The translations under genes and the position numbers were made by a program. A DNA stretch of 60,587 nucleotides, counting the filler, from Sluysia triapertura (lineage: Eukaryota): assembly GCA_046118255.1 (NCBI GenBank). It is 4 parts of 4 records of this genome, joined end to end, with 100 filler letters (N's around TTAATTAATTAA, not from the genome) between each part and the next. Parts side by side here need not be neighbours in the genome. Positions count along the whole stretch, not along the records: positions 24,443 to 44,975 come from JBJNIA010016636.1; 3 more parts are not named here. The stretch is one strand, 5' to 3'. This document shows positions 30,860 to 57,617 of the stretch, one piece after another. The notes beneath the pieces were generated by a model. The model was given only the letters and a program-made list of their open reading frames with translations. It did no database searches and was not told where the DNA came from. Within the stretch, counting starts at the first letter, position 1; every line of letters begins with the position of its first letter.

Positions 30860-31445
30860 GACCTTTGGAGTACTTAACGTTGATATTCATCAAATCGATT
30901 TAAAGTTAAATTTAATTGTTTTTACTGATATATAATTTTCTTCAAGCATATGTCGAATAACGAGTAATGCCATTCGAGCCGATCGTACACTATATGGATA
31001 AGACAAATAACTTAACAATTTGAACACGTAGTTTGATGATATACAGCTACTCTGTCCAGTTTTGATTATATAATCGTTTCGTAACACTTGTATAATAGCT
31101 TTAGCCCCGATTTTCCCACTTGGTTGATCGTCGTCACTAGTATTAAAGACACATACTAAATCAACAAGGGAAAGTATCATCTGAACAGTCCTAACCAATT
31201 TTTCTTCTGTACCCGACAAAGTTAACATATGACCTGTTGTTTCAGATTGTCGCATGAGAACATCCATACCTAGACTACTAAATTGCACGATAGCATACAA
31301 GCGTTCTAGGTGACTAGTACCGACTTGAACAAGACGATCTACAATTAATTATTTCAGCAGACTCAATCTAGATCCACGATCATTAAAGCGCATCATTGAT
31401 TCTCCTTGGAAAGATTCATCATATGTAGAAATAGATCTGTTAGAT
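30860..31445 (-). pseudogene. Unidentified helical-protein gene fragment with in-frame stops
   Basis: ORF 30890-31300 extends upstream through one TAA (…RLSLLK*LIVDRLVQVGTSHLERLYAIVQF…). It lies between an LTR-like repeat and the PanK start. Confidence 0.4.
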
Positions 31446-31476
31446 AAGCTTCACGTCGTTTTTCTAATTCAGTTAT

Positions 31477-31864
31477 GTTGTACTGATAGAGGTGGGAGAG
31501 GATTAATGATAAAAAATGAAAATAAACAAAAAAATAGAAGGAATAGGAAATAATAATAATGATAACATTATGTGGTTATTATGTTTATTAATACCAAATC
31601 ATTGAGATTTATTATGAAATTTTATTATGAAAATTATTATAAAAATTATTATAAAAGTTATTTGGTATTTATATTATATAACAATAATGACTATAATTGT
31701 TACACATATTTTAATATGATATGAATCGTAATAACAATAGCGATAGTTCATGATAATTAGATGTGATGGTTGTGTTTGTTTTTAAATGAGTTTAGTAGTT
31801 TGTTTGTATATGTGAAGTGCTTTTATGTGATGAAATGTGATGGATTTGTGATGAATTCCCTACA
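31477..31864 (-). mobile_element. Solo-LTR-like repeat (TGTAGGG...), copy A
   Basis: Begins TGTAGGGAA on minus. About 300 bp is clearly homologous to 56245-56537. It truncates the Gypsy 3' LTR. The far end is approximate and no clean TSD is visible. Confidence 0.6.
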
Positions 31865-32178
31865 CATTAAAAACTTCGTCGTCTTCAGAGAGTTTTCTTT
31901 TTTGGTTGTGTTTTTTACGTTTTGTTATTCCTTTTATATTAATTCCCGACACGATAATAATTAAATTTTGATATATACAGTGTTAAATTAAATTTAGTAT
32001 TAATTGAATACACAGTGTTAGTTACTAAATATATACAGTATTAATTTAAATTTCAGTACATACATCGTTATTAATAAATAATTCTATCATAATATTGGAC
32101 ATAATAGTAAGTAATAATAATAATAACAATATTAGTTACTTTTATTAGTTGTATTTAATTTAACAATAATAATAATGA

Positions 32179-32209
<31 letters not shown>

Positions 32210-32350
32210 GAAAAGAATACAGATACAAATCATAATGATAATAATAATAATAATACTAGCAACAATATTATTGTTTTCCCTTTTGTTTTGTTATTAAATT
32301 GTATTAATTGAATTAAAAATTAATTGAGTATATTTTTTAAATGTATTACA
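31865..32350 (-). repeat. 3' LTR of the Gypsy element (truncated)
   Basis: Starts TGTAATACA 2 nt after the PPT and has a TATAAAA box at about 31938-31932. Cut at 31864 by a second LTR-like repeat. Confidence 0.65.
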
Positions 32351-32385
32351 AATTCCTCCCACGACGGGCAAGCTTTGTCCCAAAG

Positions 32386-32794
32386 CTAAGAATAAAAGTA
32401 TTGTTCATCGGATGAAGGGTTGGCGTATCGTTCTGGACGTTTAGTATATATGTCCAAAGATTTATAAAAATTTCGCAATTGTGTTCGTCTTTTGTGTCGA
32501 CGCTGTGATGGAGTCAGTGCAGATGACAAATCAGGCGGAGGCAGTACAGGCGTATTCAAATACTACCTAGAAGATTGGTGTGGTGTGCTAGGTTGAGTTC
32601 AAAAAAGTAACGGAAATGCTCTTTAAAATATGATGTATATCCATGTATTTCTTCGCGACACAGAGCGCATGTTGAAAATTTTGTTGTATTGATGCTAAAC
32701 AAGTTTATGATGCATTTATAGTCATATTTATGATTGCATGGGATGCATTCGACATAATATTCATTTATGTATTCTTACAAATTGGGCAAGCCAT
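32386..32794 (-). pseudogene. RING-finger protein ORF inside the Gypsy element (frameshifted)
   Basis: MACPICKN/..NEYYVECIPCNHKYDYKCIINLFSINTTKFSTCALCREEI gives CxxC..CxHxxDxxC..CxxC spacing, followed by a Pro/basic tail (PVLPPPDLSSALTPSQRRHKRR). Confidence 0.7.
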
Positions 32795-33014
32795 TTATCA
32801 AATAGTGAGAGTAGGGTCACCAAAAACATACTTTTATTAGCCTATATACAGATCCTACCTATGTAGCAATCGTCGATCATGTGCCAACTACTCAGTGAGG
32901 CTGAGATCAGTGGACTTCATACATCGAGATTGAAACCTATAAAGATACAATAAAATAAGTAATACAAAAAAGGTGTATATACAAATGCGTATGTTTATGC
33001 TACTTTCATCGTTA

Positions 33015-33398
33015 TTAATTCCTTCTTACGTTACAGCAACAGCTGCTTATGGGATATATAAGTGTTAAGCCTGTAAACGGATGCACTACTGCATTGTATA
33101 AAATTCGCATAGTATCCAGTCCGATAATGCATGATGTAGGGCAATTTCTGATGATAACAAAAGTGACCATTACTCTTCGATCTAGAATTTCGATCTCATT
33201 TGTGATCAAAACGACTACAGGTACGTCACGACCCATGCAGTCAACTAACTGACCAGCAGTTGGTTGAATAAAAGATAGTTCATGTAGCTGTAATGATACA
33301 AAGTGACGTATTGTATATGGAGCAGCTGTATCAAGAAGTGCACGTCCTGGTATTCCATTAATTTTTATGTTCTGCCATACACAGGGTTTGTCAATCAT
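33015..33398 (-). CDS. Second, stand-alone retropepsin-like aspartic protease
   Basis: IKINGIPGRALLDTAAPYTI...FVIIRNCPTSCIIGLDTM matches the retropepsin pattern (DTG replaced by DTA; IIGxD). Open 127-aa frame. Confidence 0.75.
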   Translation of the reverse strand: MIDKPCVWQNIKINGIPGRALLDTAAPYTIRHFVSLQLHELSFIQPTAGQLVDCMGRDVPVVVLITNEIEILDRRVMVTFVIIRNCPTSCIIGLDTMRILYNAVVHPFTGLTLIYPISSCCCNVRRN

Positions 33399-33404
33399 TG
33401 GGTT

Positions 33405-34262
33405 TCAAAGTGTTAATAACGGTTTTGGATTATATATAGTGAATTTTCTCTTTTGTCTTACACAGACTTTCTTGGGTTTCGACCAGCGAAAAATTGAAAT
33501 AACAATAGAGATTACAGTCCAGCTGAATTCTATTATTATTGTTGCAATCAGGAGTTTTATCAACTAAATTGAATGAGTGCAGTTTGATTCCTTTTCTAAA
33601 TTGGTTAACTTCATAGGAATTTTCATCGATGAGTTTGTTGAATCAGTGTAGTTATATGAATATCGGGGTGTCGATGTAATTTCGGATTTCTGTGTTGTAG
33701 TCATTGAGGAAATACCAAGGTTACTATCCGTATTATTTCCGTCAGGGTGAAATTCTTTATCATCATAAGAGTCGGTTGTTATCTCGTATATGAAATCATA
33801 GTCACCTTTTCGTTTGGATAATTGAAGTTTTCATAATTCCTGTGATGCTCGGGGCCAAATCTAAAGCTTCGACGTTCCATAAAGATAGGTACCCATGTAG
33901 GTAGTTCATACGTGGTATCCGGTGATAAGTGTTTGCAGACAACAGGTTGGTCCGGTCACATTACTTTTATTTTATCATTTGGACATATTAAAAGGGCTAA
34001 AAACGGTATAATGGCCAAATATATCTTTACAGAATCAGAAGTAGTTGATATTTGCAAGTGGTCCTTGATTATTTTAATAGTTTCATCCATTCCAGGGTAT
34101 TCGTTGGTTTTGAGGGTAAATACGATATTTAGGACAGTTAATTGATCCTGTTTATAGATAGGTATTAAGTGTCTGTAGTGAAAATGTGAAGTCTGGTATC
34201 CAATTCTGTGGGTAAGTGCATGTTATTAATGCAAATAATACAAATGTTTGTAAGTGCCATCT
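33405..34262 (-). pseudogene. Decayed type I membrane glycoprotein ORF inside the Gypsy element
   Basis: Signal-like RWHLQTFVLFALITCTYP, an ectodomain with stops, a Ser/Thr-rich stalk with N-glycan sequons (NNT, NYT, NSS, NCT), a hydrophobic segment LIKLLIATIIIEFSWTVISIVISIF and a basic tail RWSKPKKVCVRQKRK. Confidence 0.55.
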
Positions 34263-34276
34263 CGCGTTATTATGAG

Positions 34277-34786
34277 TCAGTGAAAAGGTGGGGGTGTTTC
34301 TTCATAAGGAGGAGGTTTTCGTTTTAAATAACAATTTTTCCAATCTATTAATGATAATAACAACAATAAGATAGCGAAAAAACAAAAAAATGGAATCATC
34401 AAAATTAAAGTGAACAATGGTTCTTGTAGTACTATTGATGTAATAGTCGTGTTTGTAGTTAAGTCGAGGTATTCCAACATCCATGTGTATGAATTTTGTA
34501 TTACATTACAATAGCAGATATCAATTCCATGATTTGAACAATTCATTAGGAAATATGGTTTATTCGTATTCAATCGAACTATATGTACTATATTTGCACA
34601 GGGCTTTTTATTACATGACGGTTTGCAAGAAAGACTTGCACTTGGTACCTCTTTCCCAAGGTAAGCTAGTAACTTTACAAGAGGTTTATTACATTCCGTG
34701 GCTCTGCATGCATCTGTTTCAACAATCAAATTGTTCCAAGTGATACTGAATATAAGTATCATTAAGACATTCGTTAATCCTTTCAT
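34277..34786 (-). CDS. Intact 169-aa Cys-rich type I membrane protein in the env position, with PPPY tail
   Basis: ATG lies 1 nt after the pol stop (TAAcATG). Signal peptide MKGLTNVLMILIFSITW, 8 ectodomain Cys, sequons NCS and NTT, TM LFTLILMIPFFCFFAILLLLLSLI, tail WKNCYLKRKPPPYEETPPPFH. Confidence 0.75.
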   Translation of the reverse strand: MKGLTNVLMILIFSITWNNLIVETDACRATECNKPLVKLLAYLGKEVPSASLSCKPSCNKKPCANIVHIVRLNTNKPYFLMNCSNHGIDICYCNVIQNSYTWMLEYLDLTTNTTITSIVLQEPLFTLILMIPFFCFFAILLLLLSLIDWKNCYLKRKPPPYEETPPPFH

Positions 34787-34787
34787 G

Positions 34788-37700
34788 TTAGAGTATCGAG
34801 TTTGTTTTTGTTGTTGCATTAGACAAATTTGATTCCGTTATAGCCTTTTTACATCTGTTTGCATGTACAGTTTTAGTCTTTTTTGAATTCTTATTAATAA
34901 CTTCTAAGTTTGTAGGGGTTATATTGACAACTTCGTATGGACCCTTAAGCGATGATTGAGGGTCCGTAAATGACCTTTGGAAATTACGGAATCGTAAATC
35001 AAAACCTGATCTCCAACTCTAAACTTATGAGGTTTCGTCTTTTATCATAATATTCCTTCATATTCTCTTAATTATGTCTGATATTCAAACCAGCCTTAAT
35101 CCAAGAATCATGTAGTCTATTTTTTACTATTGATATATAATCCGGGGTATCAATATACTGTGATTGGGATCCAGACCATTCTAAATCAATTGGCACATTA
35201 GTATGTCTGCCGTACATTAATTAAAAAGGCGTTTCTTTTGTTGTATGGATAGTATTTCTATATGCGAATAAACAGGGTTTTACGTATAAATCACAATCAG
35301 TTTGTTTTGAATTTATGTAGGATTGCAGCATATTTACTAGCGTCTTATTAAATCGTTCCACTAATCCATCTGTTTGTGGATGGTATGGTGATGTATATAT
35401 TCGAGCAATACCAAAAAATTTTGTCACTGCTGCTGATGTTTCACTCATAAAGTCTTTTCCTCTATCAGTAAGCAACTTCTTGGGGGTTCCGCACCGATAT
35501 ACTATTTCTTCGACAAATAGTTGTGCTATTGTTTCTGCCTTCTGATCTTTCATAGGAAAGGCTTCCGGCCATCGCGTCTGATAGTCTGAGAAGACAAGTA
35601 TATATTTATTTCCCATAGGCGTAATTGGTAATGGTCCTAGCACGTCCATTGCAGTATTTTCCATTGGGCTTGTTGGAACCGTCATGGGTGTTCTTGTTTT
35701 TGATCCAGTGTTTTTTCTTGACATGCATATGTGACACGTACCACACCATTCTTTAACATCATGTTGTATAGTCTTCCAATAATATTTTTGTTCAATTCTT
35801 TTTAGTGTTTTTCCAAAAGATAGATGTCCACCCAATAGACCGTCATGATATTGAATCATTAAAGCTACTTTTCTGGTATCCGGTACAACTATACGTAACC
35901 CATCTTTGGTCATGTACTTCAAAAGACTAGTTTCCATTTGGAAGATAATTCGTCGGCTAATTCGTTATCAATAATAAGATCAATTATAAGTTTTAAGTCA
36001 GGGTCTTCTCTTTGAGCTTGCGCCATTGATTTTTCGGTTTTACTAAGATCCACTACCATTGCGCATACTTCTCCTTTCTCGTTTACATTTTCAAGTCTTG
36101 ACATGAAATCCGCGTTTTTATTGTATACACCCTTTCTATAAGTTATTTCGATGTCGTATTATGCTAACGCTAAACTCCATGTAGCCAACCTTCCCATTAC
36201 GTTTCGTATATCTCTAAGATACATTAACGGTTTATGATCTGTATACAAGTATACATTATGTCCTAAAAGATAGTCTAAACTGCTTTAGAGCATAAATAAT
36301 AGCCAGACATTCCTTTTCAATAACCGAATAACGTGTTTCACAGGAATTTAGTCTACGACTTTGGACCGCAATTACATATTCTCTTCCGTTTTCATCCTTT
36401 TGTACCAGTATTGCGCCTATTGCGAAGTCACTTGCATCTGTCATGAGTATAAGTGGTTTTTCCATATTAGGGAATCGTAAGATTGGTGCTGTTATAAGTG
36501 CTGTTTTTAATGTTTGAAAAGCATTTTCCTGAGTTTCTGTCCAAATAAAATTTTTAATCAATTTACCTTTTTCTCTCACATCTTTATATTTCTTTGTAAG
36601 TTCCGTCAATGGTTTAGCTATCGTCGCAAAATTCTTTATGAATTTTCTGTAATAGTTGGCTAATCCTAAAAAGGCTTGAACTTCTATTTGATTTGTAGGA
36701 GTTTGAAATAATTTAACCTTCTTTAATTTCTTTGGATCTGGTGAAATACCATGTTGTGATACTACATGTCCTAGGAATACAACTTTCTCTTTAGCCCATT
36801 CACATTTTGTTTGTTTTATTTTCAGTCTCGCATTTTGTAGGCGAATAAATACTTCTTGTGTATCTTTCAAATGATTTTCGAAATCCATAGAATATATTAT
36901 TATATCGTCTACATATATACCATTGTATGTTGGCATCCGGCTAATACAAAATTCATGTACCGTTGAAATGTAGCCGGAGCTCCCGTTAAACCAAAAGGCA
37001 TTTTTTCATATTCAAATAACCCCTCCTCGGTAGAAAATCAGTTTTATGTTTATCTTCCTCTGATATGGATATCTGCCAGTATCCACTTTGTAAATCTAAT
37101 GTCGTGAAGTACTTAGCATTTCCGAGTTTATTAAGCATATCGTGTATTCGTGGTAGGGGATATTCATCCTTTCCAGTTACTTCGTTTAACTTGCGAAAAT
37201 CTATACAAAATCTCATTGATCCATCTTTCTTCTTGACTAATAATACCGGAGATGAGTATGGTGAGAAGCTAGGGCGTATTACTCCCGCCTTTTTCATTGT
37301 TTCAATTTGTTCTTTCATAATTTCCGTATGATGGAATGGTATTGGATACGGTCGTAGTTTGACAGGTTTATTAGTGGTTAACGGAATTGTATGTTTAATT
37401 ACTGTTGCACTTCCTATATCATATGGATTCTTTGATACTACTTGTGGATATTTATCCAGAAGTTGCTTTAATTCTAATTTTTGCATTATAGATAGGTTGT
37501 CATTATTTTTTACAATGTCGTCATAATCTTCTGTTGTAATCTCGCCTTTTAAATGGATTTGAGGTTTTTCCTTGGCTACGCATATGATGCTATCTTCCAG
37601 TACTGGTTCCAATGTTCCAATTTTCTGATTCTTAAATAGTTCAATTGGATCGCATGTAGGATTGCAAATTCGGACAGGTAATTTGTGATGAATTATTTTG

Positions 37701-38215
37701 TTAACACTTCGTGATATTAAAATTGAATATTTATGAGTTAAATATGTTAACGGTTCAAATGTTAAGGTTTCTTCTCCGTAATAAGGGGTATAGGCCGTGA
37801 TTATTGATTCGGTATTCGGGGCTAAGGTTACATTTTCCCGTAATACTACTGTATATCTTTCGGGTATTTTTTCATGTAAATCTATTAGTTCGAATTGACT
37901 TAAATTGATTACGACCCCTTCCAATCTCTTTAGAATGTCAATTCCTACAATTTTCATATGGAGAATCCTTTATAATTCTTGGAGTACAATTAATTGTTCT
38001 TCCAACAATTTTCCTATCAAATTTATTTTTTCACCTGCTACTGACGTTATGACACCAAAGTGTGGAGTTATATCTTGTATCATTTCTTTATTTAATATTT
38101 CTACATTAATAATTGAATGAGTCGCGCCTGTGTCGATTAGACCCGTATATTTATTTCCATTAAATCCAATTGTTGATAAGAATGTATTCTTATGGTTCTC
38201 TTTATCCTGAGCCAT
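34788..38215 (-). pseudogene. pol: Gypsy pol (protease, RT, RNase H, integrase) with stops and frameshifts
   Basis: LIDTGATHS; SPYSSPVLLVKKKDGSMRFCIDFRKLN; YVDD; TDASDFAIGA; YSVIEKECLA; TDHKPL; HHCC; MDVLGPLP; TDRGKDF; ERFNKTL; GPY motif near 34940. Split across ORFs 37970-38215, 36986-37957, 36256-36936, 35919-36104 and 35221-35937. Confidence 0.95.
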
Positions 38216-38952
38216 GTAATAATGTTCGTTTATTCGTGGTGGTAGGAATCTATCCCTTTGATTTCGTATTTCATTTTCTCTCCATATTTCGAAATGGTGA
38301 TTAAAGTCTCACGTCTTAATTCTAGTCGGTTTCAGACTTCCATTTTCCTCGAAATTTATTCTTGAGAACTTTCGAATTATGTTCCTTGATAAAAATTTTA
38401 ACTCGTATTTAACGTAAAAAATGAATAACTTTATTTATATTTCTTAAGTCGTTTACTGTTATTTTAAATGTTAACTTTATAATACTTAAAAGTTTATTCT
38501 CTATAATTCTTAACTGAGTTTAAAAATCTAATGGTTTTTGATGTAAATTAAATTCTCTTTATTTTATCTGTTGTTAGAGATTAGATTTATTTAGACTATT
38601 ATTTTAAACTAAAAAAATTATCCCAGTTTCCACTCTCTTTTCAAACTATAAAATTTATTCAATAAATTATATTAATGAAATAATAATGAAACATACAATT
38701 TTATACTGAAAATAAAATATTCTTTTCTTTCGTAAATTTTTTATTAGTTTTAAAACAAAACTTAAATATTTAATCTATTCAGAAAATGCTAAAATTCACT
38801 TACTTATGGATAGTTCAATTTGAAATTTTAATGACTTGTAATTGTTGAATACCTAATATAATGTCTTCCAAATTTACAATGTCTTTCAAATTTTTACAAT
38901 ACAACGTCTCCCAAAATTCACAATATAAATATTCTAAAATTTACAATATAAT

Positions 38953-39120
38953 TGTAGTGTTCAACTCATTAATGAACCCAACTCAACCACAAATATTCAA
39001 TACACAGTCTAGCCCTACCACATCTTTCACACAGGCCAACACTTAAAATATAACATACGTTAAACTTATTATGTACTTCAAATATATTATATTAATACGC
39101 TCTATCTAAAATATAACGTA
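38953..39120 (+). mobile_element. LTR-like fragment (TGTAGTG start, C/A-rich)
   Basis: TGTAGTGTTCAACTCATT resembles the minus-strand start TGTAGTGGTCAACACTCATT at 279. Confidence 0.4.
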
Positions 39121-43967: not shown

Positions 43968-44351
43968 TTGGTGTCCGATACTCAGGATGTAACTGATCAC
44001 GAAAATGTTGATAACAATTATAATACATCACTATTACAATTTGTTGAAGGCATGATAAAGCATGTTATTGAAATGGTGAATAAGTCTCGATGGATAGTTC
44101 CGGCTCTACCTGATGGAGAATTTAAGACCTTGCTTTTGGCATCTACACGATACTCTAGTGCTAGTAAAGATGAAAGAATCAATGAGTTTAAGGATCCTTA
44201 TAGAAGTGTTTTTAAAGTTTCTCTCGGAAAGATAATCACTGATAATGCTATATCGAGTTGGAAAACTGATATTTTAGACAATATATGTCCGAATTCCTTA
44301 ATCATCACGAAGCTGTGTTTATTGAAAATATTAGACTATGGAAATGCGTGA
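43968..44351 (+). pseudogene. USP9X/USP24 (fat facets)-like N-terminal fragment
   Basis: EMVNKSRWIVPALPDGEFKTLL...SLGKIITDNAISSWKTDILDNI..N...LCLLKI matches USP9X [22 protein letters not shown]...[22 protein letters not shown].NN...LCVAKL. Confidence 0.8.
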
Positions 44352-56130: not shown

Positions 56131-56244
56131 CAATTAAAATGTTAGAGTTGTTAAAAGATCAAATTTTATAACAGATACTAAATGTAAACTTTATAAATTG
56201 ACACTCATATAAATATATATAAAGTGGAAAAATAAAGATTGATA

Positions 56245-56537
56245 GTAAGGATAAAAGAAATAATAATGATAACAATAACGTGGTTATTATGTTTATTAAT
56301 AATGGCATTGTTGATGTTGATATGAAATTTTATTATAAAATTTTATTATGAAATTTATTATAAAAGTTATTATTTAATTTGAATTATAATAATGATAATA
56401 GCTGTAGTACATGATAATTATGTGCAATGTTTATGTTTGTTTTTTGAATGAGTTAAGTAATTTGTTTAATAATCTGTGTATATGTGAAATGTTTTTTATG
56501 TGATGAAGTGTGATGGATTTTATGAGATTTCCCTACA
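56245..56537 (-). mobile_element. Solo-LTR-like repeat (TGTAGGG...), copy B
   Basis: Homologous to 31535-31864 (shared GTGGTTATTATGTTTATTAATA, TGTATATGTGAA..TTTTATGTGATGAA.TGTGATGGATTT and TTCCCTACA). Confidence 0.6.
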
Positions 56538-57617
56538 AGTTTATAAAATATTTAAATCAAAATAAAATAATAAAATAACGAAAAAATTGTTTAAATTAAC
56601 GATGTTTTAAAAATTTTCTGCACATGTTAAAATAACATTAAAATTAATGTATGTGTAAGGTTGAATTTTATTAGTATTCCTAATGTTGAAATGTAAATTA
56701 AAGTATATATTAAATTGATACATACCAACTCAAACATGTAATTCAAATCGACATGGGACGTACAGTTGACACATGACGTATTGTATAAAAAACGTCCTAG
56801 AGAAAAGAAATTTGGTATTTGGTTAGTTTAATGTTTATTTTAAGTTTATAAATTATGCTAATAACAAAATATTAGTGTAATAATGATGTTAAATTTTGAT
56901 TTAGTTGTGTTGAAAAGATAAGGAAATTGTTCACCACAAATCTCATTTTATTTTTGTAATTACAGGATACAATAAAATTTGAAGCCGGCGGAAATTATTA
57001 TTGAAATTTAATTATTAAAATTAGTTGACTTATGATCGACTAAAAAGAATAAATAGTTTTATTAAGTAATTATTTCCACTTTCCAATTTTTATTCTTCAA
57101 CGACTGTGTAAACAAATGTATTTATGTAATAAAATCAGAACAATATAGCTGGACAAAAAATATAACTTTATATGCAAAGATTTATCTCCATTACGAGCGC
57201 TGCCTCAACACATTTTTAATAAACATTGTGATTGAGGACTTATCTTTAGCTACTGATTAAACTTAATAAACTCTTATGTTATTGTTATTTTATTATTGAT
57301 AATAATACGGACGTCAACATTTATCGTGTTTTGTCACCCTTGGATTTTTATACATTTAGCACGAAAGACAGTGATCTTGTGTACTGAAAGCATATTATTA
57401 TAAAATAGCTGATAATTTAATGTTACAATTGAAAATATTTTGAGATTTATTGTAGAAGACAGTGATTTATAATTCTGATAATTTATTGTGACAATTGAAA
57501 AATATATTGAGATTTCGTATTAATTTACATATTGAGTTATATTTGAATAGACTCAACATCTTATGTAAAAGGTTACCAGTACTAATTTATTATAACAATT
57601 ATTTTCTGCTAGATTTG

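Follow-up and report, generated by a model that had tools for sequence, protein, structure and literature searches.

A truncated Ty3/Gypsy element of Sluysia triapertura with four open reading frames between pol and its presumed 3′ end

The pol gene, the four reading frames and the 3′ boundary

The analysed stretch of Sluysia triapertura DNA (assembly GCA_046118255.1; 60,587 nucleotides (nt) in four joined parts, hereafter the window) contains on its minus strand, within the part derived from JBJNIA010016636.1, a decayed pol gene followed by four co-oriented open reading frames (ORFs A to D, together referred to as the cassette; Table 1). All four are present inside the presumed 3′ boundary of the element, as a previous sequence-only reading of this DNA had described. 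Pfam matches recovered the domain order protease, reverse transcriptase, RNase H and integrase from about position 38308 to 34788, which is the Ty3/Gypsy order and upholds the earlier assignment of the element to this group; the pol stop codon is located at 34790-34788. The spacer between protease and reverse transcriptase aligned with the spacer of related elements and had no Pfam match at E values up to 1 (a dUTPase-like spacer is a trait of the planarian Burro elements discussed below). Alignment to intact relatives revealed four stop codons and six frame changes in pol. Positions 38256-39042 were matched by an identical contig with a depth of 16, indicating unique DNA upstream of the element. 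The copy is dead and 5′-truncated at about 38300-38400, and about 6 kb of its internal region remain. No gag precedes pol in this truncated copy, a point on which the earlier reading was silent, and the window contained no match to residues 1-2150 of the gag- and env-bearing relative P0121 (see below); because of the truncation, these absences describe the present copy and say nothing on full-length copies of the family.

The gaps between the reading frames measure 1 nt (pol to ORF A), 14 nt (A to B), 6 nt (B to C) and 220 nt (C to D), so that the tight spacing noted earlier (about 1, 15 and 6 nt) was retained with a slightly corrected second value. ORF A encodes 169 amino acids (aa) with a hydrophobic, signal-like segment at residues 7-17, eight ectodomain cysteines, a transmembrane (TM) segment at 122-149 and a PPPY motif at 158, in line with its earlier description as a cysteine-rich type I membrane protein. 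It matched no Pfam or PHROG family. Its single-sequence structure model was poor (predicted local distance difference test, pLDDT, 57), and the fold search proposed earlier for each ORF returned for this model no match at E 0.001 and none with Z of at least 5, the TM helix being the only resemblance. The Atlas leads US6, DUF2650, PRIMA1, ORF7a and Shisa all scored at most 0.84 and were treated as leads only.

ORF B is fragmented over two frames with internal stops, extends from about 34262 to a stop codon at 33407-33405, and lacks a start codon in the frame of the signal-like piece. It had been read as a decayed mucin-stalk membrane glycoprotein; the membrane protein and its decay stand, but the serine/threonine (S/T) stalk is short and a fibronectin-III (Fn3)-like domain is more likely. 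When 810 chunks of the window were compared with a profile built from the Fn3 units of related elements, ORF B ranked first (E 0.002 with 19 units; E 0.007 with a cleaned version of 17, from which two false units had been removed), and its score was reached by none of the 877 reported shuffles (of 1000).

ORF C (127 aa) matched PF13650 (E 3.7e-5), a match that passes the curated cut-off. Active retropepsins share the catalytic motif D-T/S-G, which is found in 10 of 11 protease motifs of close relatives; ORF C lacks it and carries D-T-A, a variant shared with the extra protease of P0121. None of seven candidates among proteins of 69-223 aa held up as a counterpart of ORF C. ORF D starts with an ATG at 32794, ends with a stop at 32388-32386 and is spread over three frames. 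RING-H2 E3 ligases have eight zinc ligands in a C3H2C3 arrangement; in ORF D the first pair of Cys is encoded in a different frame and Asp replaces the second His. The earlier call of a frameshifted RING finger therefore keeps its frameshift and a match to PF13639 (E 2.1e-5), but with 25.2 bits this match stays under the cut-off of 27.3. RNF38 and RNF13 were weakly matched in the PDB (E 0.07-0.12), and Pfam searches found ORF D RING-like only, with no BIR, BCL2 or MATH match seen. A pyrimidine-rich, splice-acceptor-like run ending in AG occurs at 32947-32936 on the minus strand, about 140 nt 5′ of the RING start and with ATGs in between. The intactness of ORFs A and C is compatible with neutral decay at the lesion density of pol (P 0.23 for A and 0.34 for C), and selective retention of the two thus was not needed as an explanation.

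At the 3′ end, a hairpin is followed by a purine tract (PPT), which at 32360-32350 directly precedes the TG of a presumed long terminal repeat (LTR), an arrangement typical of Ty3/Gypsy elements; TGTAATACA is present at 32350, the start of the presumed 3′ LTR. This 3′ signal appears credible, since the corresponding pattern, which was composed after inspection of the window site, has here its only minus-strand match in the window and occurred in 12 of 90 Gypsy loci in sense orientation versus 4 of 90 in antisense. The boundary outlined earlier (hairpin, PPT, LTR at 32350) is thus retained for the hairpin, the PPT and the TG, but the LTR itself has neither a 5′ partner nor a second copy in the window. 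A search of the window for the 5′ LTR gave a best local score of 38 against a shuffle maximum of 46, so that paired LTRs with a target-site duplication are not seen in this truncated copy, and no second copy of 32350-31865 was found there. The adjoining TG...CA repeat is covered by very many contigs of run X1 (see below), one contig joint being located at 31864, and may be a solo LTR belonging to another family or, alternatively, the distal portion of this element's own LTR. Summed contig depth was 659 at 31906-32306, a bin partly skipped as repeat, versus 4,541-13,327 over 32708-35113; as contig depth is unsuited to ranking the parts, this difference was not used to question the LTR.

Table 1. 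Features of the element and its 3′ flank in the window (all on the minus strand)
Feature	Position	Strand	Basis	Remarks
Decayed pol	34788..38308	-	Pfam matches	protease, spacer, reverse transcriptase, RNase H, integrase
ORF A	34277..34786	-	sequence and hydropathy	intact; orphan protein of the type I membrane class with eight ectodomain Cys and a tail bearing PPPY
ORF B	33405..34262	-	profile match	disrupted; type I membrane protein with a signal-like piece, likely a single Fn3-like domain at about 34050-33870, a short S/T stalk, a TM segment and a basic tail
ORF C	33015..33398	-	PF13650	intact second retropepsin; D-T-A motif
ORF D	32386..32794	-	PF13639	frameshifted RING-H2-like finger; Pro-rich basic tail
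Gypsy 3′ signal	32350..32387	-	pattern match	7-bp hairpin 32387-32371; PPT 32360-32353; TG of presumed 3′ LTR
AT-rich stretch after the PPT	31865..32350	-	position only	presumed LTR start
Separate TG...CA repeat	31476..31864	-	second copy at about 56220-56538	roughly 390 bp; same start base at 56538

Related polyproteins and further copies

An integrase search restricted to proteins of 434-2000 aa yielded 486 matches, the best 120 of which were listed. Among the matches listed, the integrases of the unnamed metagenomic polyproteins P0001-P0015 were 53-60% identical to that of the window. A tree calculated from 56 of 122 rows (P0001-P0020, P0121 and every third other row) placed the window in a starred set of 15 rows together with P0001 and P0121 (support 98/91), and in a starred set of five rows with P0002, P0003, P0004 and P0010 (support 99/99). 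P0002 (MGL4337186.1) is labelled as a protein of a Turicibacter metagenome-assembled genome, which likely reflects eukaryotic contamination of a bacterial bin.

A TM-like segment follows the integrase in 9 of 16 close relatives versus 1 of 91 others (13 of 104 without the anchor motif), these membrane tails mostly having Fn3 ectodomains, and 4 of 16 close relatives carry a post-integrase protease. ORF C groups with seven extra proteases of the clade (98/96) and apart from the canonical proteases, including that of the window itself; together with the PF13650 match, this grouping corroborates its earlier identification as a second retropepsin. The post-integrase ectodomain of P0008, which was folded along with five other stretches, is predicted to adopt an Fn3 fold: its model (pLDDT 86.8) matched tandem FnIII domains in neogenin and fibronectin, with TM-scores of 0.3-0.5 and a best E value of 7e-7, and Pfam fn3 matched three of six aligned ectodomains (best E 4.5e-4). 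The arrangement of modules varies among the relatives. P0008 has an Fn3-TM module also before the protease, P0009 two proteases after the integrase, and P0012 an extra protease before the canonical one; P0011 contains a Cys-rich membrane protein with PPSY, P0013 ankyrin repeats, and P0017 a signal-like segment at its end.

P0121, a cluster mate of P0001, is judging by its sequence the best intact example of the clade. It is a single ORF of 3,735 aa on an 11.5-kb contig and comprises, in this order, a Ty3 capsid-like start (weak, E 0.011), CCHC, a PF24664 fusion glycoprotein (E 1.2e-91), two proteases, reverse transcriptase, RNase H, integrase, a signal, an Fn3 ectodomain and a TM segment. The lineage is thus likely complex and possibly infectious, as had been suggested, with accessory modules after the integrase and one env-bearing member. 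Locus scans recovered distant Gypsy elements only (best 80 of 581, at most 42% identity; 10 loci in another scan) and no DNA context for the close relatives, which is why only modules fused to the polyprotein are visible in these.

Contigs were available from one run, X1, which alone was listed as containing the stretch; no RNA dataset was listed. Of 6,948 contig records placed on the stretch, 4,983 were less than 95% alike, and only part of the tables was listed. Among the contigs listed, diverged ones were found over every ORF of the cassette (9 at position 34566, 19 at 33575, 5 at 33173, 10 at 32863 and 4 at 32766), unlike the flanks, which were matched by single identical contigs. A diverged contig of 328 nt bridges the end of pol and ORF A. 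The element is a repeated family, and the cassette, to judge from the diverged contigs over all four ORFs and the one that joins pol to ORF A, is not a random accumulation. At some of the breaks other contigs differ in sequence, so that part of the damage seems specific to the present copy.

Weighing of the possible readings

The locus probably represents a 5′-truncated, broken copy of a repeated Ty3/Gypsy family that belongs to a clade with a Burro-type gag-env-pol member, and the four ORFs would be accessory genes of this family directed at the host surface and at ubiquitin. The component of this reading held most firmly is that the cassette is native to the family, which is very likely: the diverged contigs, the integrase clade, the kinship of ORF C and the 3′ signal all agree with the earlier proposal that it belongs to the lineage of this pol and lies inside its 3′ boundary. 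Whether full-length copies of the window's family carry env is an even call. The specific role of each ORF, as far as it can be deduced from motifs and domains, is doubtful and put forward tentatively.

In the relatives, a membrane protein and an extra protease lie in frame behind the integrase, have internal signal sequences and would be released from the polyprotein by cleavage. In the window copy the modules form separate, nearly abutting ORFs, whose translation would likely depend on re-initiation or on subgenomic RNAs. ORF B might function in adhesion, in attachment or as a receptor decoy. PPxY motifs recruit Nedd4-type ligases, and through its PPPY motif ORF A could engage such ligases for budding or for removal of host surface proteins, while ORF D may act as an E3 ligase. 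ORF C could process the products of the cassette, or it may be catalytically weak because of its D-T-A motif. Fusion, where present, would depend on a separate env between gag and pol, which is missing from this copy. The membrane proteins of the cassette themselves are probably not the fusogen, because P0121 has a separate fusion glycoprotein.

Several results weigh against this reading. A fixed four-gene module, as originally envisaged, is not upheld: no counterpart of ORF A was seen in the relatives examined, and the RING pattern was present in none of 21 relatives, of which separate ORFs are not visible. A homologue of ORF A was likewise not among 37 candidates from proteins of 92-296 aa, and its two hits among 1.84 billion proteins were 22-residue matches to tandem repeats, which were rejected as artefacts. 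ORF B is likely, but not proven, to be an Fn3-type membrane protein, and the link is weakly shown because the profile match covers about 20-30 residues, hhalign gave a probability of 22% (E 0.001), and Pfam fn3 did not match ORF B. The branch of ORF C is long (3.08). Gag and Env together occur in only 1 of 17 close proteins, P0121, which falls outside the nearest five-row set of the window. The present copy has no gag, no env and no BIR, BCL2 or MATH match, and it is likened to Burro by layout, not by a tree that includes a named Burro. Run X1 may be the source of the window itself, and none of its contigs listed spans the whole element. The question of whether other members lack the cassette, on which the sequence-only reading had hinged, receives a divided answer: diverged contigs cover all four ORFs, whereas one contig joint (34843->31864) skips the cassette and reflects either a deleted copy or insertion of the 31864 repeat in another copy.

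A native cassette could also belong to an env-less family that never leaves the cell and whose extra genes tune the host (survival, signalling, ubiquitination). This alternative is rather unlikely, but best withstands the data among those considered. The window contains neither gag nor env, P0008 carries Fn3-TM, not env, directly before the protease, and there is a precedent in the Burro1 RING-BIR protein, a captured inhibitor of apoptosis protein (IAP) that is reported to protect planarian stem cells from apoptosis (PMC13465017, citing Lee et al. 2026). However, with the copy truncated at about 38300-38400 the absence of env is uninformative on full-length copies, and P0121, a member of the same starred clade, has env.

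Much less probable is an envelope or fusogen function of ORF A or ORF B themselves, comparable to the small membrane ORF3s of LTR elements in bdelloid rotifers. ORF A occupies the usual position of env after pol and combines a signal with cysteines and a TM segment, and small Cys-bearing TM ORF3s have been proposed as possible fusogens (PMC5408684); on the other hand, the related ectodomains are predicted to fold as Fn3, P0121 has a fusion glycoprotein in addition to its Fn3 tail, and ORF A has no Pfam match. The last alternative, in which unrelated insertions or fragments captured from the host accumulated as the four ORFs behind pol and the PPT possibly belongs to another element, would account for the missing counterparts of ORFs A and D in the clade, the 3′ LTR without a second copy in the window and the joint that omits the cassette, but it is very improbable in view of the shared strand, the gaps of 1, 14 and 6 nt, the lack of visible introns, the diverged contigs over all four ORFs with one bridging pol and ORF A, and the grouping of ORF C with the clade's own extra proteases.

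Genomic surroundings and comparison with known elements

The window is AT-rich, with 18-37% GC in most 1-kb bins. Pfam and an ORF scan detected host exon-like ORFs for a tyrosine kinase, PITP, PanK and a chromodomain protein, because of which the host looks like an animal. The tyrosine kinase exons (15891-17578, plus strand) encode a kinase domain interrupted by long Asn/Gly/Ser-rich inserts. A further exon-like ORF at 43968-44348 (plus strand) has no Pfam match and presumably resembles USP9X/FAF. A tRNA-like sequence at 1333-1404 has two similar copies at 22799-22879 and 23190-23321 and is likely a tRNA-derived short interspersed nuclear element. A contig of depth 102 matched the ORF-bearing region 31093-31446 but differed from it at 10 positions over 354 nt, which suggests that other copies exist.

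Among described elements, Burro/GYPSM1 of planarians combines a Ty3/Gypsy pol with many accessory domains, namely RING, BIR, BCL2, MATH and ankyrin (PMC6431247). Its internal region reaches 25 kb, a dUTPase-like spacer separates protease and reverse transcriptase, and the huge ORF1 (about 4,900-5,100 aa) contains Gag and, in frame between gag and pol, an env related to mononegavirus fusion proteins (PMC6431247). The mononegavirus-type env of P0121 is positioned in the same way, and ankyrin repeats, which are on record for Burro1 as well (PMC6431247), were seen in the relative P0013 only. In contrast, neither Fn3 membrane proteins nor a second retropepsin nor a cassette behind the integrase are mentioned in the accessible description of Burro (PMC6431247). 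By layout, the present element likely behaves as a Burro-type complex Ty3/Gypsy element, which does not establish membership in Burro itself. The suggestion that it represents an undescribed new system was not sustained, because the layout of P0121, the nearest complete relative, and RING among other accessory domains match what has been published for Burro (PMC6431247).

The polyproteins P0001-P0015, P0020 and P0121 share membrane proteins and extra retropepsins after the integrase with the window copy, but carry these modules as in-frame fusions with Pol, whereas they are separate ORFs here. LTR elements of bdelloid rotifers also possess additional ORFs behind pol, some of which encode small TM proteins with cysteines, but with one ORF3 per family (env, esterase, exonuclease or TM), and the words RING and fibronectin are absent from the text on them (PMC5408684). 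Errantiviruses, the env-bearing Ty3/Gypsy elements, likewise associate membrane protein genes with a Gypsy pol; they differ in that the post-pol proteins described here have no fusion-protein match and the env of P0121 precedes pol (PMC13524379). That paper does not contain the word Burro. In the literature covered, which lacks most subscription papers, such elements are nowhere described as having Fn3 surface proteins or additional retropepsins; ORFs behind pol may already have been reported by Grohme 2018 and Lee 2026.

A bolder interpretation, which we regard as speculative and on balance unlikely, is that these elements constitute an undescribed and diverse infectious Ty3/Gypsy virus lineage. 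Its members would combine an Fn3 attachment protein with a separate mononegavirus-type fusion protein, use a second retropepsin to process the modules, and employ a PPPY adaptor and a RING ligase in budding or in antagonising the host, and their modules would alternate between in-frame fusions and free ORFs.

Few groups are known to harbour complex Ty3/Gypsy elements rich in accessory genes. The present analysis adds three accessory types for which the literature covered gave no description in such elements, namely surface proteins with Fn3 domains, a lineage of duplicated retropepsins and an orphan membrane protein with PPPY, and it finds accessory modules in unnamed relatives (a membrane tail in 9 of 16 and an extra protease in 4 of 16) that are fused to Pol there and free in the family of the window. 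If these modules serve attachment, budding or control of the host, they would offer a test of how far retrotransposons have independently evolved retrovirus-like accessory systems.

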